This document shows, in pieces, positions 37,201 through 39,058 of a DNA stretch of 64,000 nucleotides (positions are counted from its first letter, which is position 1; every line of letters begins with the position of its first letter). Location of the stretch: the NCBI GenBank assembly GCA_036503335.1, contig DASXXC010000037.1, forward strand, positions 782 through 64,781. Reading direction: 5' to 3'. The notes beneath the pieces were generated by a model. That model was not told the origin of the DNA. It saw only the letters and a list, made by a program, of their open reading frames with translations, and did not search any database. The DNA is from Thermoanaerobaculia bacterium (GTDB lineage Bacteria; Acidobacteriota; Thermoanaerobaculia; Multivoradales; UBA5704). The position numbers were made by a program, and so were the translations under genes.

Positions 37201-39058
37201 GACCGGCAACCTGGTCGTGATGACCGGCAACGGCGGCAAGCCGATCGAACGGTACGAGTACACCCCCTACGGCGAGCGCAAGATCTTCGTCGACAATACC
37301 CCGCCGGCGGTCGAGCAGGTGCGGGTGAAGGGCAACGCCGTCTGGGTGGAGCTCTCCGAAGGAGTCTCCCCCGACGCGCTGGCCAAGGCCGCGACCGAGA
37401 CGCAGACGCTGAAGCTGACGGATCTGACGAATCAACACGATCTCAGCATCAACGTGGCGCAGCCCGTCACCGCGGGCCGCGAGGCCAACCGGCGGCTGGT
37501 GATCACCTTCCCCGGCTCGGCTCCGGCACCCCAGACCCAGGTGCGGCTGACCCTGCCGGCCGCCGCGCTCGTGGACTCGTTCCTGAACCAGCCGGCGCAG
37601 GACTATCAAGTCACCTTCACCTGGCCGGAGTCCGACGCGGTCGTCCAGGACAACAAGGCGATCGCGCTCCAGCGGGTCGCCGTCCGCGACGGCTATCTCG
37701 AGATCGAGCTCTCCGAAGAGCCCGACCTCGCGACCACCTCGGCCATCCAGATCGACGGCGCACCGGCCGCCTGGGCTCTCGGAGACGACCGCTACACCCT
37801 CAAGAGCCAGACTCTCCTGGCCAAGGGTACATACACCCTCACGATCGGAACGGCCCTGGCCGATCTGAACGGAGGCACGCTCGCGCAGGCGTTCACGGCC
37901 AGCGTCTCCGTGGAAGACAAGGACAATAAGGCGTTCTTCGAGGCCGTCGATCCGCGGGAGACCCAGGCCTCGACGATCGGGAACCGCTTCGGCTTCCAGG
38001 GCTTGCCGGTCGATCCCGAGACGGGCTTCCTCTACGTCAGGAACCGGTACTACGACCCGGAGATGGGGCGGTTTGTTTCCGTAGACCCGAAGGGGTATTC
38101 CGACGGTCCCTCTCCCTATGCCTTCGTCGGGAACGATCCGCTGAACGCGACCGACCCGATGGGTTTGTGCCTCGGATTCAACGATGAGGTCTGCTACCAA
38201 ACGGCGGACCGCTGGTCCAAGAACCTCAAGCAGTTCAAGGAGAAGATCTCGGTCGACGGAGATGGCTGGGGCTCGATCATCACGAATACCCTTACAGGAA
38301 CTGCGGTCGATGCGGTCGATACGTTCCTGGTAGATCCACTGCGTGCAGGGCAGGCGACTGGCGATGCGATTGGCAGCGATGCGAGCGCGGGAGATATTGC
38401 CTTAGCGACGCTCCAGGATGCGGGACGCGTAGCCGTCCTGGCAGGAGGCGCAGGGGCTGCCGCTGGAGAGGCCCGAGCTATCGGTAAAGGCGCTCAGGTC
38501 GTCCGGGAAGCAGCTGCGCTTGACGGAGTAGCAGATGAGGCCGTTTCAAAAGGTCTTGGCAATGCTGGAAAAGCCGCCACGGTCGCTGAAACCAGTGCAG
38601 AAGCGGGTGACGGCGAGCGAATGATCCAGGTGTATCGAGGAACGAAAATCGGGGAGGAGAACAATATCTATGAGGAGACTGGGCACCTGTTGAGCGATGC
38701 CGGGCGTGAGGGGTATAGGGAGCTGGGCGATTCGATAGACGGAGCTTACAAACACGCCTCCGACGTTCACGACAAGTGGGTCAAGATCTGGGGCTCCGAA
38801 AGGGATCTCGTGGAAGCCCACGCAGAGTGGGGCCAGGAAGTGCCGCAGGCGTTCGGTCTGCGTCGCACGTTCATGTCCGTGACGACCGATCTCAAGGAAG
38901 CGAAACGCTTTGCGGACCTTGCGGATGGTGGTAGAGTCTATGGAGGCTTGGTGCCCGAGTCGATGCTGTTGAGGCAGACCCTGAGCACATCGGGCGAGAG
39001 CGAGTACCTCATTCGCTTGGGAACCGATCTGCTGAAGCCGCTGGCAATGCATCCATGA
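25250..39058 (+). CDS. giant Rhs/YD-repeat polymorphic toxin (4602 aa) with Sec signal, Ig-like and carboxypeptidase-regulatory-like stalk, LVIVD-like region, Rhs shell and C-terminal toxin domain
   Basis: ATG 25250 overlaps the upstream TGA (ATGA); an alternative ATG lies at 25286 (MSRRRPF...). Signal peptide is LLPALLGLLAILASLALWAQ. Five ~90-aa Ig-like repeats are each introduced by D[ST]xxP. SbsA-like Ig domains follow. The Rhs entry motif is GRGLDFVVHRTYRSQTIGAGPFGPGWDFNYNERL, followed by many YD repeats. The Rhs core end is YVRNRYYDPEMGRFVSVDP...GNDPLNATDPMGL. Confidence 0.9.
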   Translation: MTNRSFSSGALTMSRRRPFRPLLPALLGLLAILASLALWAQTNPDTDPPQIHILESGADLADGRLLNRAATPVIQVTDASAVTVTATLDGAAFTSGTTVSAEGTHQLAVTATDAAGNTASLAVGFEIDTTPPAFVSVLPANDAVVSSAQVTLQGQVTGAATVTVDGQAATLSGQSFTAGPYTLSEGTRTWTIVAADAAGNTATWTHRIVLDSHAPTVSISQPAAGAVVKDGAVDVVGSAQDPHLAGVTVNGVAATVTGTTWLAPRVPLAEGSNTLTAHAEDRAGNAAEASRAVVRDSQPPALAITDPASGTVVPGSTITLRGTASDPHLDRVEVNGSRAQLSAGVWSLAVSLTEGNNDFTVQGFDSVGNTATATVSVTRDSQAPAVTIEQPAQGAHLNAQSVTVSGTVAQKPGVTVTVNGTAATVTGGTFSLAGVSLVEGDNTLIARAKDSVGNEGTYTRKVVRDTVAPTLLSSDPAAGALALPVDAALRLTFSEAMATPAAGSWRLETGAGQSIAATASLAGEVLTVQPSAALPSSTQVRLVLTSALTDLAGNPLASPPTLTFFTADVTAPGAPALSPAPPRALCAPVVTLTGTTEAGAIVRVQGGAAAAEARANETGSFSVDVQLVPDQINFLRLNAVDPSGNVSDAVQVQVTADCQPPRVLSADRQGSAFRVVFSEAVTAASVGSAVQLSSSQGAVAGSVSLGTDGKTATFTPSASLPAGALRLDVSADVRDLAGNAMGFPWSQVFGAEGGSGFVSGTAIDDATGRPLAGARVVVIATNGTALPDPKPEQVTGPDGRFRIPVPAGTHDLTIGRPGYTPSFRVVTTTAGQGIDIFDPRLTPAAAPQTIGAAGGAAGTAPAPVLTLSAGALAANTAVAVTPLSEQGLPSPLPYGWSPRGAAWVDLANAALLAQSTLSLPVESPDGTSLAVVHLDLATLQWRVLDTAQASGGSVSIALPAAASGLTDGAYAAVEADDGATAPPAAVAGAVLGGSPRPSGTDVTAAALSFDPQVVLPSQTSLATVGYTTAQPVASGLPLTLLVQENLTLLDDSSRRQTPYQADLILYHAPGGSARSRFRLRPSDTAQTLPLKMGAEDVTLRSYGDAVAGNVIGADGGTVSDDEGDHVDLPAGAVADPTAVTLTRKTPDDLPLAVPAGTELAGVVSLDLGGRSLLAPAALSLALSTAPASGDKGLLLQAVDLETGPAWRPVAALLATATGWTTAPIDPADLPWPGVRDEGIYAFVRLTTPLGYLRGTVFDVGGAALAGAQVHGSAVSWLQIAGSDGRYVLPAPVGTLGVAAENPATGNEATASTTIPAADARVDLDLHLAATGPHVLEISPADGAVDIPQGIQPTARFSKAIDSTTVAAAVQLLQGGAPVAVDLDVQGGVLLRVTPRATLLPGTVYELRVGTGVRDLQGNPLDAPASATFTTRRIIQSNDLDLSRVFLVEPDANGEAHVTGRAGAVPAGALVFVENLSALANTPSVTAGADGSFSLSLQAALTHRLVLHVLITGSNEVVTELTPFHTADLKGAYVGTQAVTFTTGDGVAVEVPEGAFSGPTRVRLEPQPLSPPASPVPAGMAAVYNFQLDFAGAEAKKPLQISIPKPAGSPDAVDGVYLLNRMIVIQGKTYWMLHDLMRLDATGRLTTDLPPAGAAASGATANPQVASLGDPFRLAAALSPDGPVVAPKVLLRSYKYYVTGSAFPGQYEVAASQIPLGFTLFPSFDVNFLVGIWNLGMEGMATAIDRSVAQLLEGDAVLIPTRRHVPFTLEVRNLSTGFLLSRETFPAVEDDSFVELPPDVYGDKEAPWPVDGNPVRFMLLNLAGPSEQELASGVKAKLQNGQITVTGEDDSTQKDVQIRLIGLDDDTSTTVTSSDSGSFDLNTQGKAGNRYILAIGARIPADQPLEITFNEALSQGFPGIDVMDGGGHSLHPDKDPVGTRATVRVHLKTSWRTGQRYTLHLGKELADASGNAWQHDLDVEFEVAASDNIGTFELPAVRDVAHLGSWLFVAADTKGMMILDAADPAHVSNVLPGDLAIPFPYSDPVRGVAVDPHGRVLLAGGGVNSPGQLKIFDPLALDVQAITDHPNDLSLLLAPYKGSTIVSDKLGGTGTQLPSGLPRRIALLSNDDSDEWILGDPEPEDVSVVEDVPQVGPDGKPLPDFKVTVTGTGAEPNLPVSLQDVDRGRWTRVDAEADGSFSIELDVQKGDRLRLLRNRASIAYVATSGVGLEVVDVNAFYNEDHSFVQSDILGTYSGFQAGLTLCGQPVADVGTAFTNLDTLFDETNLNPLTIVGLVANRGFLLLRSNPNSVGNISLINSECTEVDGSTAVSALAVLQNYPFDLNDDGELSPSEYRDYVLVAHQAAGILLYDITNRGDIKLVGRIRMPGQVSALSVDREARRLIVAGGGAGFYVVDLDAPPSLDLIDVDQDGKDDRILETVTLTGNTNSNVHLIPELGLALAGGLNRGLTTVAIGHPQVDAITRNDDGTYRKVERLAPFGVPSEKGEESDPDSPMMPGSFRVRASLPGLVGDTVTLKVSDITTACLVDDLPAEKEVTLHRMATRAFEPGYQMYLSDEISVLSDPRASHKYDRTEDEKKNCIRCDQEEENVSDDAVEVLSGDFVSVHFPDEIREQLKDVYSHDRLDASELHIPSVRWDLVPSDHQESRRDAGFTTAAPGLLGGSGEMSSDSTDLSVRGRGLDFVVHRTYRSQTIGAGPFGPGWDFNYNERLRALPNGDVDYYDGRGRRETFTKQQDGTLKPPTGMFVTLERNESGWVMIDVHHMTTRFDDRGRLTSIADAVKDSKDTGNEITFFYDAKARLVRAHETTGRDILFERREEGCGEISKITDFDNREFLYEYDDKNRLISVKTPPVETVLSIGDQLTTQGDPLETKYTYDDASGTLAQVLGQRDNLTSASDAKGQDWLQVTYGDAHGNGRKNDVTGQTLGGGNLQVQYDFNAHQSMVTDPRGSTFSYTFNDKGQVQEVKDPANGVVSYTHDDEGLVTSRTDAYGRVTTYEYDTACGDGSPVGDRRSRGNLTRVTITPDARGSNGSSGILVSCTAYEGYSNQPTLTIDPRGTRTVINRNEVGLPLSVTQAAGTPDASTVQTTYNDYGQPVQVVNPNGHVTQYQYDLNGYPSGMVVDPAGLGLVTHYNNDARGNVTSMTDPRGVTFTRAYNALNWVTATRRGATAPHDNPGAPVLNYETTYFYDPNGKLVEEHLPYGDGSAFTRRAYIYDELDQLTFTLEQAMPGQPFAEWSSTARTYDLNRNLIQVVEPDGQTTAFIYDQRNYLTASVRGVSTEHPGQEVTEHYAYDLEGKRTSYTDGRGGVWSTEYDGYGRVARTTDALGNSAAVSYDDTGNPTVTGVYQAPQQAGGAAALLAQKTADYDRLNRPTAIHQKLWQGANGGARDLTASFQYDAASNLVKAIDPLNRQVTSELDHAERLIASTDPMGNRTELDLDKAGNPAVRRSIEVQPAGGTVTVTTTSTFDALGRVASVRDDLGNLQKYFYDARNNLQSAVDPENFVTTRTYDGLDRLIREVRPEGISVDYSYDKSSRLISYKDALEQETKYTYDALNRKTGVEYPDHTTEAYEYDANSNPTQITDANGNVVVQTFDAGNRLTGRSVTRGSGVIGPTSETYAYDGLNRMTQATSGTVTTLLTFDSLSRLVAEQTAGRSFVYDLDDAGNSTRVQYPSGFALRQTFDPLNRPSAIDWWSSSTGTPFAHPVSYGYRGTGLIVSKTLGNGLTGTRQYDAARRLLEETLQTAGGQTVFRESLTWTPRSLKASQARRDLNGKGMLFSYDGASRLIQATQTANPTLPNNVAAAPEDFTQLTDAFAYNYDKAQNLLSTTKKEDGVAEAVALPLDGSKRNRPASVGASALTWDANGNLLSKGDLRFQYDYRNRLTRVSRANGDEVATYEYDALNRRVKKTVGTDTYETAWRGWQPVEEYHNGTQLDQRRVYGLGIDEIVQAQTDFNGTSEPGQVYAPVYDSTGNLVVMTGNGGKPIERYEYTPYGERKIFVDNTPPAVEQVRVKGNAVWVELSEGVSPDALAKAATETQTLKLTDLTNQHDLSINVAQPVTAGREANRRLVITFPGSAPAPQTQVRLTLPAAALVDSFLNQPAQDYQVTFTWPESDAVVQDNKAIALQRVAVRDGYLEIELSEEPDLATTSAIQIDGAPAAWALGDDRYTLKSQTLLAKGTYTLTIGTALADLNGGTLAQAFTASVSVEDKDNKAFFEAVDPRETQASTIGNRFGFQGLPVDPETGFLYVRNRYYDPEMGRFVSVDPKGYSDGPSPYAFVGNDPLNATDPMGLCLGFNDEVCYQTADRWSKNLKQFKEKISVDGDGWGSIITNTLTGTAVDAVDTFLVDPLRAGQATGDAIGSDASAGDIALATLQDAGRVAVLAGGAGAAAGEARAIGKGAQVVREAAALDGVADEAVSKGLGNAGKAATVAETSAEAGDGERMIQVYRGTKIGEENNIYEETGHLLSDAGREGYRELGDSIDGAYKHASDVHDKWVKIWGSERDLVEAHAEWGQEVPQAFGLRRTFMSVTTDLKEAKRFADLADGGRVYGGLVPESMLLRQTLSTSGESEYLIRLGTDLLKPLAMHP
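33300..38167 (+). other. Rhs/YD-repeat shell including the Rhs-associated core (TIGR03696-like), ending at DPMGL
   Basis: Repeated YxYDxxGRL/N-type motifs run throughout (e.g. FLYEYDDKNRLISV, YTYDALNRKTGVEY, YEYDALNRRVKK). DPMGL is encoded at 38153-38167, the motif after which Rhs proteins autoproteolytically release their toxin (established for the family, not tested here). Confidence 0.85.
38168..39055 (+). other. C-terminal polymorphic toxin region: ~150-aa Gly/Ala-rich linker plus ~145-aa ADP-ribosyltransferase-like domain
   Basis: MIQVYRGT (Arg codon 38636-38638), TFMSVTTDLKEAKRFA (Ser codon 38876-38878) and GESEYLIRL (E-x-E at 38996-39004). The Ser-to-ExE spacing is 40 aa, as in iota/C3-type R-S-E transferases. 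G+C drops across this region. Confidence 0.6.

Follow-up and report, generated by a model that had tools for sequence, protein, structure and literature searches.

A conserved insert, predicted to form a pair of Ig-like domains, at the barrel-plug junction of giant Acidobacteriota Rhs toxins

Introduction

Can the C-terminal pole of an Rhs cocoon, where the barrel of YD repeats meets its plug, carry a domain of its own? The question is raised by a gene for a giant, apparently secreted Rhs polymorphic toxin of 4602 amino acids (aa), found on a 64,000-nucleotide (nt) stretch of a Thermoanaerobaculia bacterium genome (GenBank assembly GCA_036503335.1, contig DASXXC010000037.1, positions 782 to 64,781, forward strand). 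We call this whole stretch the window. An earlier reading of this DNA, made without database searches (the sequence-only reading), had pointed out some 230 residues resembling two SbsA/Big_5-type immunoglobulin (Ig)-like domains between the last YD repeat of this protein and the rest of its Rhs-associated core, and had considered their placement just before the plug structurally unusual. In the solved Rhs, Tc and teneurin cocoons the C-terminal pole is essentially invariant, and variation has been described only at the N-terminal plug (PMC8765631).

Here we ask whether this insert is real, how widely it is kept and on which side of the cocoon wall it would lie. The best explanation overall, to which we assign a probability of about 0.6, is that a maintained Ig pair stands at the barrel-plug junction, outside the cocoon, in a structural or adhesive role.

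Results and discussion

The Rhs-associated core is split by 230 residues

The last YD hairpin of the barrel, YEYTPYGERKIF, is separated from GNRFGFQGLPVDPETGFLYVRNRYYDPEMGRF (GNRFGFQG...), which starts at residue 4410 (nt 37979) and opens the core remainder ending in DPMGL, by exactly 230 residues (nt 37289-37978). The length and the opening sequence of this insert, VDNTPPAVEQVRVKGNAVWVELSEGVSPDAL, were as first read, and the start originally proposed, 37291, was only two bases late. The insert begins about 10 residues into the Rhs-associated core unit, at the barrel rim. The NCBIfam model of the core, TIGR03696 (76 positions; curated cut-off 32.5 bits), matched the protein at 70.1 bits, aligned from model position 11 onward, and in a six-frame search of the genome it scored 77.5 bits with only positions 10-76. 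The core is thus recognized by score and is not one contiguous unit, since positions 1-10 stand 230 aa upstream of the remainder. Alignment to the TIGR03696 and RHS-repeat models, the check suggested by the sequence-only reading, showed a split core and no YD repeats in the insert.

In this protein 256 residues separate RxRYYDP from the G of the last YD motif, vs roughly 30-50 in the generic Rhs proteins retrieved (for example ERYEYTPYGEVTVLDADFSDDADGASDVENPYTYTGRRFDDETGLYYYRNRYY in P0032 and ARVYDAWGNVLAQTGAIPQYGYTGREPDATGLVYYRARYY in P0021); the regular expression behind these distances misses diverged last repeats and inflates many of them, and was used only with inspection of the sequences by eye. 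The only other Rhs core of the genome, on a 2100-aa open reading frame (ORF) of contig C78 (G000:C78:5343-5570, L080), was matched by TIGR03696 unbroken from 1 to 76. The shell of this second protein is distantly related to the insert-bearing one (about 27% identity over short segments). Another candidate carrier, G015:C203, picked up through a TIGR03696 match starting at position 12, had only a long linker of about 45 aa and lacked the insert.

The insert is predicted to fold as two Big_5-type domains

Big_5 (PF13205) matched the insert in two stretches with 33 bits, above its gathering score of 23.6. The better stretch covers insert residues 138-203, in the second domain, and the family was matched in 29 of 40 members of the insert-bearing group. 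An AlphaFold2 (AF2) model of residues 4140-4480 (341 aa; 40-sequence alignment) had a mean predicted local distance difference test score (pLDDT) of 87 and a predicted template modelling score (pTM) of 0.79. Averaged over 10 residues, pLDDT within the insert was mostly 91-98, with one block at 81: the first Ig-like domain showed mostly 94-96 and contained the weaker block, and the second showed 95-98. The model depicts two all-beta domains with one short helix each, and a strand in the return linker that follows them (model residues 253-258, pLDDT 84-91). A larger model (residues 3273-4472, 1200 aa; 31 sequences; pLDDT 90.4, pTM 0.83) gave identical secondary structure for the insert; extra strand pairing with the shell was not readable.

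Structural searches with Foldseek paired the smaller model with tandem Ig-type domains (LdtMt2 BIg-A/B, S-layer SbsC, Bap and Fabs) and the larger one with Rhs cocoons of type VI secretion systems (T6SS) (8QJA-D, 7PQ5, 7Q97, 8CP6 and Tse15; E 1e-47 to 1e-42), matching along about 960-990 of its 1200 columns, close to its whole length without the 230-aa insert. Between the two Ig domains themselves, similarity is faint. Recent copying from the N-terminal Ig domains of the same protein was considered as their origin and ruled out: phmmer found nothing significant between these domains and the insert, which is therefore not a recent internal duplication.

By family match, model and fold comparison alike, the insert is a real, folded module of two Big_5-type Ig-like beta-sandwiches, in agreement with the sequence-only reading. 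We regard it as extremely improbable that the insert consists of ordinary YD repeats that have diverged, or that it arose as an artefact of assembly or frame: a Pfam scan found no RHS_repeat within the insert and scored Big_5 above its cut-off, AF2 builds two beta-sandwiches and not a strip of hairpins, the frame is open, and the same arrangement recurs in dozens of independent assemblies.

A clade of Acidobacteriota Rhs toxins maintains the insert

The 341-aa segment (insert plus core) was searched against 1.84 billion cluster representatives (50% identity). It retrieved 98,028 proteins at E≤1e-3, mostly generic Rhs cores, and 196 representatives at E≤1e-30, the best 150 of these 196 all matching within the insert-plus-core segment. 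P0231 is among the proteins that span the insert. The approximately 196 insert-bearing clusters come almost entirely from metagenome-assembled genomes (MAGs) of Thermoanaerobaculia/Acidobacteriota. A collection of 5.8 billion proteins yielded 17 mid-length and 35 giant homologues (2.7-5.8 thousand aa) covering the segment, with a coverage of 96-100% in all but P0013 (67%, a fragment at a contig end) and an identity of 38-89%, apart from P0263 (4602 aa, 100%), which is the window's own protein. The next matches cover the core only, and the score falls from 213 to 67 bits. The placement is hence common to a clade of some 200 clusters and not unique to the window gene.

Species-representative genomes contain the insert at 46 loci, nearly all in MAGs of Thermoanaerobaculia or other Acidobacteriota. 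Its distribution is sparse: among 151 sampled genomes of the window's class, 105 have Rhs cores (595 matches) and only 4 have the insert (10 loci), and it was not found in the sampled relatives of the same genus and family. When shells were compared with phmmer, insert-bearing proteins scored at least 305 bits vs at most 239 bits for any insert-less protein of the set. That the insert-bearing proteins are set apart by their shells speaks for their having arisen once.

The insert is kept while the toxins behind it change. Homologues end in EndoU-like PF14436, AHH PF14412, PF14449, PF15636, PF15520 and other families, and Imm26 is found downstream of P0277. This is the architecture of a polymorphic toxin, a conserved scaffold with exchangeable C-terminal toxins, and the insert belongs to the scaffold and not to the variable toxin. 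Mean pairwise identity reaches 0.43 in the first Ig domain and 0.41 in the second, close to the 0.45 of the shell; the plug has 0.63. Residues D42, P46, Q50, E61, E64, P99, R109 and D136 of the first domain are invariant in alignment A2. In the last YD hairpin, at least 90% of the 40 members share Y29 and G35 (invariant in alignment A1) as well as E27 and R28. Judging from these alignments, the constraint on the Ig module equals that on the cocoon, and the module is a selectively maintained, clade-defining part of the scaffold.

Some members dispense with most of what lies upstream. The short stand-alone P0014 and P0018 (L085; 1968-aa and 2116-aa forms, about 2 thousand aa) have their own signal peptide, begin directly at the conserved pre-shell segment (LAPLGVPT...) without an Ig stalk, and keep the insert; P0018 (1968 aa) has no giant gene upstream.

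One 'Candidatus Multivoradales' MAG (assembly CBDFLE01) showed a strong local expansion, with at least seven insert-bearing loci (L011, L017, L022, L024, L025, L026 and L046).

Solved relatives have no domain at this junction

A profile of the region was compared to all chain sequences of the PDB, and 39 different sequences of Rhs, Tc, SGS and teneurin proteins matched. With a single exception, the alignment is confined to the plug (profile columns 248-328). In the exceptional case, 8QJA, it opens at column 204, where ordinary YD repeats from the end of the barrel pair weakly with the end of the second Ig domain; between the last YD motif of 8QJA (WEGRYSALGK) and LCYQGQYYD there are only about 19 residues. 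None of the solved Rhs, Tc or teneurin chains therefore carries an insert at the barrel-plug junction. Neither ordinary YD repeats in the gap nor, among the solved chains, comparable inserts, the two findings by which the sequence-only reading would have been refuted, were seen.

The protein shares with T6SS Rhs effectors (P. laumondii Rhs1, 7PQ5; P. protegens RhsA, 7Q97; P. aeruginosa Tse5, 8CP6; the S. bongori and A. mimigardefordensis cores, 8QJA-D; A. baumannii Tse15) the YD cocoon, a DUF6531-type N-terminal plug, a DPxG-x19-DPxG plug and a variable toxin after DPxGL. Their core, however, is contiguous and lacks the junction Ig pair that splits the core here, and they are PAAR-/VgrG-linked cytoplasmic cargo, whereas the window protein has a signal peptide and an Ig-rich N-terminus of about 2600 aa; Pfam scans of the whole protein gave neither PAAR nor VgrG. 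An Ig-like domain is known from Rhs1, but at the N-terminal plug (PMC8636562) and not at the junction.

The BC cocoons of Tc toxins (TcdB2-TccC3, 4O9X; YenB-YenC2, 4IGL) have the same C-terminal protease plug, in a larger, four-turn cocoon with a toxin of about 30 kDa. Their TcB beta-propeller is a precedent for a folded domain in a YD shell, yet it lies at the opposite, gate end, where it docks TcA, and the C-terminal junction is without insert. SpvB, TcB, TcdB_toxin_midN and FG-GAP were all absent from Pfam scans of the window protein. From its domain content, this protein is neither a T6SS-type effector nor of the Tc type.

Teneurins and the bacterial teneurin-like protein (6FB3, 9IFO) resemble it in their extracellular YD shell, decorated on the outside, and in the use of an Rhs core as plug. 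Their external domains (ABD, Tox-GHH) nevertheless come after the plug of an uncleaved chain, while here the Ig pair precedes the plug and the protease motif is intact. Big_5/SbsA-type Ig domains (PF13205), such as those of S-layer SbsC and the LdtMt2 BIg pair, are akin to the insert in family and in forming tandem beta-sandwiches. Known examples are linear arrays in surface proteins, in contrast to the nested pair found here, both ends of which must return to one point on the rim of the Rhs barrel.

Folded domains attached to YD shells are thus familiar, namely the TcB propeller, the teneurin NHL, ABD and Tox-GHH domains and the Ig-like plug at the N-terminus of Rhs1. To our knowledge, none of them stands between the last YD hairpin and the C-terminal plug. 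Literature searches on Rhs proteins with Ig domains at the barrel-plug junction, or on Rhs toxins of Thermoanaerobaculia, found nothing relevant; the 'Ig-like' of the Tse15 paper, a possible precedent at first sight, refers to VgrG.

A second insert occupies the same site

Within the class, some TIGR03696 matches start further along, at model position ~23-25. In two of the proteins, G022:C15 (L088, 43700-45950; a 4171-aa ORF) and G031:C4 (L089, 132600-134850), around 190 residues lie between the last YD motif (..NGAYGEE and ..GSAWGAK) and the plug. These ~190-aa inserts had no Pfam match, and their profile comparison with the Ig pair aligns the plug only. An unrelated segment at the same site suggests that the junction is a recurrent insertion site in the class, which lowers the uniqueness of the Ig pair and raises the generality of the finding.

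A canonical plug and autoprotease motif, followed by a variable toxin

After the insert the protein resumes the expected course. The plug has the motif DPKG-x19-DPMGL (aa 4445-4472; Asp codons 38084-38086 and 38153-38155), and both aspartates, D4445 and D4468 (D306 and D329 of the alignment), are invariant in 40 homologues. The DPxG-x19-DPxG aspartyl-protease motif has been described for Tse5 (PMC10684867) and mutated in Rhs1 (PMC8636562). Self-cleavage is predicted after L4472, between DPMGL and the following C. The shell matches T6SS Rhs structures over about 970 columns, the 1200 of the model minus the insert. Cocoon, plug and predicted self-cleavage machinery are otherwise canonical.

The C-terminal toxin domain had no match in Pfam or NCBIfam. 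Its VYRGT, MSVTTD and GESEYLI motifs form an R / S-x-T / ExE-like pattern that suggests an ADP-ribosyltransferase. Toxins have a median length of 276 aa in the insert-bearing family vs 182 aa in generic Rhs proteins.

Position and role of the Ig pair

How can a folded pair be accommodated in the middle of the core? As noted from the outset, it would have to fill the toxin cavity or protrude through the shell. We propose that the chain would leave the barrel rim after YEYTPYGERKIF, build the Ig pair outside the C-terminal pole, and then be led by the conserved APDPRE linker back into the barrel, where it forms the plug. An external cap or handle would thereby sit on a pole for which the solved Rhs structures show no decoration at all. 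Buttressing of the plug is one possible function of the pair; another is to present a binding surface on a presumably Sec-exported, extracellular toxin with no known T6SS or TcA carrier. A structural (capping or buttressing) or adhesive role is our best guess.

Given that the module is real, its external position on the C-terminal pole is probable. One argument is space. The three-turn cavity of Rhs1, of about 28,000 Å3, fits less than 25 kDa (PMC8636562), and the four-turn Tc cocoons hold about 30 kDa (PMC8765631). With masses of 31.2 kDa for the toxin and 24.5 kDa for the Ig pair, a folded pair and the toxin together would need about 67,000 Å3 (at 1.21 Å3 per Da). Toxins of this family (median 276 aa) already fill a cocoon of the present size, and the folded 24.5-kDa pair would by itself take up a small one, so that the pair most likely lies outside. 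The alignment also shows hydrophilic indels and loops with cysteine pairs that homologues tolerate within the Ig domains and behind them, such as an exposed extracellular surface would allow.

Several points weigh against this proposal. The position of the pair relative to the barrel is inferred from size and sequence, and the 1200-aa AF2 model covers neither the opening ~395 aa of the shell nor the toxin. The argument from volume borrows the cavities of other Rhs proteins, and the shell here (about 1300 aa) exceeds the three-turn shells of the T6SS. The high pTM suggests a fixed packing, but the pair could pack in this way inside the wall as well as outside it, and the homologues all stem from MAGs of uncultured organisms.

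The size of the shell and the fixed packing could also speak for a pair inside the lumen, as a spacer or chaperone keeping the large toxin unfolded, or as part of an enlarged plug: the cavity may exceed that of T6SS Rhs proteins, and in the solved structures the elements flanking the insert lead into the barrel interior. We consider this unlikely, given the ~67,000 Å3 needed against the 28,000 Å3 of Rhs1 and the ~30-kDa cargo room of Tc cocoons (PMC8636562, PMC8765631), given that toxins of this family are larger, and not smaller, than generic ones, and given that variable hydrophilic and Cys-pair loops fit better with a solvent-exposed extracellular surface. If the pair is external, it could instead dock the cocoon on the giant protein encoded upstream or on the protein's own N-terminal Ig stalk and propeller, as BC docks on TcA. 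The ATGA coupling to the 5999-aa gene and the 7010-aa and 7537-aa counterparts upstream of homologues would fit such a partnership, which is also improbable: P0018 keeps the insert with neither an upstream giant nor an Ig stalk, and P0014 is similar, which makes docking on the upstream giant unlikely as the only role, and Tc docking uses the opposite, N-terminal pole.

A more sceptical view is that the insert is a tolerated passenger, captured once at a permissive loop and without further function. That the same junction tolerates a non-homologous ~190-aa segment in other Rhs proteins of the class speaks for it. Yet the insert shows no decay across ~196 clusters, down to 37-40% identity; it has invariant polar and charged residues (Q50, E61, E64, R109, D136 and D161) and a conservation equal to that of the shell. 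Neither a near relative without insert, in the set compared by shell similarity, nor a recent similarity to the N-terminal Ig domains was seen, and we find little reason to favour a passenger. A bolder extension of our proposal, speculative and rather doubtful at present, is that extracellular Rhs toxins of Acidobacteriota reserve this junction for display modules (the Ig pair, the ~190-aa module) that recognise a target-cell surface or a partner, with binding coupled mechanically to the C-terminal plug and the toxin exiting by the C-terminal pole. Such a route, if real, would be unlike that of T6SS Rhs and Tc toxins, which use an N-terminal seal or a propeller gate.

Implications

The insert-bearing protein is an Rhs polymorphic toxin by every criterion tested, except for the contiguity of its core. 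A conserved module at the junction shows that the C-terminal pole can be decorated too. The Rhs toxins of this lineage are Sec-exported giants without a known delivery machine, and the Ig pair gives a handle on how T6SS-independent Rhs toxins recognise their targets or open. As a permissive insertion site, the junction is possibly useful for the engineering of Rhs containers. For annotation, split TIGR03696 matches starting at position ~10 or ~25 are a marker of junction-insert variants.

Gene layout, neighbourhood and minor variants

The coordinates of the gene and of its parts are given in Table 1. The ORF (24752..39058, forward strand) is open throughout on translation. Its mechanical start, the GTG at 24752, is over-extended, and the true start is almost certainly the ATG at 25250 (MTNRSFSS...), which gives a hydrophobic N-terminus that looks like a Sec signal peptide. 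Along the protein, Pfam families follow in the order Big_13, Glucodextran_B, Big_6, Big_5, CarboxypepD_reg, and then DUF6531 and RHS_repeat; the cocoon region scored 251 bits for PF05593, in 14 stretches, and 49 bits for PF20148.

Table 1. Position of the Rhs toxin gene and its parts within the window.
Feature	Position (nt)	Strand	Details and basis
Giant secreted Rhs polymorphic-toxin gene	25250..39058	+	4602 aa from ATG 25250
Rhs cocoon: DUF6531 N-terminal plug region (33284-33487) and YD-repeat shell of ~1300 aa	33284..37288	+	Pfam, AF2, Foldseek
Last YD hairpin, YEYTPYGERKIF	37253..37288	+	aa 4168-4179; about the first 10 positions of TIGR03696
Ig-like domain 1 of the insert	37289..37627	+	aa 4180-4292; opens with conserved VDxTPPxVEQ motif; AF2, alignment A2
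Ig-like domain 2 of the insert	37628..37915	+	aa 4293-4388; best Big_5 match, AF2
Family-specific return linker, DKDNKAFFEAVDPRETQASTI	37916..37978	+	conserved APDPRE...ST motif; alignment A2 columns 316-375
Rest of Rhs-associated core: C-terminal plug with predicted aspartyl autoprotease	37979..38167	+	TIGR03696 positions 10/11-76
Variable C-terminal toxin domain	38168..39055	+	296 aa, 31.2 kDa; after DPMGL

Directly upstream lies a 5999-aa ORF (window 7254-25253), whose TGA overlaps the Rhs ATG as ATGA; judging by this overlap, the Rhs gene is translationally coupled to it. On a shallow look only, the 5999-aa giant was not recognisable as a TcA. Genes for 7010 and 7537 aa are directly upstream of homologues at 72% and 56% identity (L082 and L084), and such counterparts at the same position indicate that the two-giant operon is conserved in closer relatives.

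The linker after the second Ig domain (A2 columns 316-360) has lineage-specific length insertions, e.g. in L014, L020, L027, L022 and L046. Some of these linkers contain paired cysteines (HEVPEECPPDALC, GCAPGTIC), which suggests disulfide-bonded, exposed loops.

Stop codons were found less than 200 aa upstream of the insert at L024, L031, L033, L034 and L036, and at G113:C13:187977-199127 a 5836-aa gene is followed by two ORFs of about 1075 aa that are also insert-bearing. These look like orphan C-terminal cassettes with a conserved arm that would run from the last YD repeats through the Ig pair to the plug.

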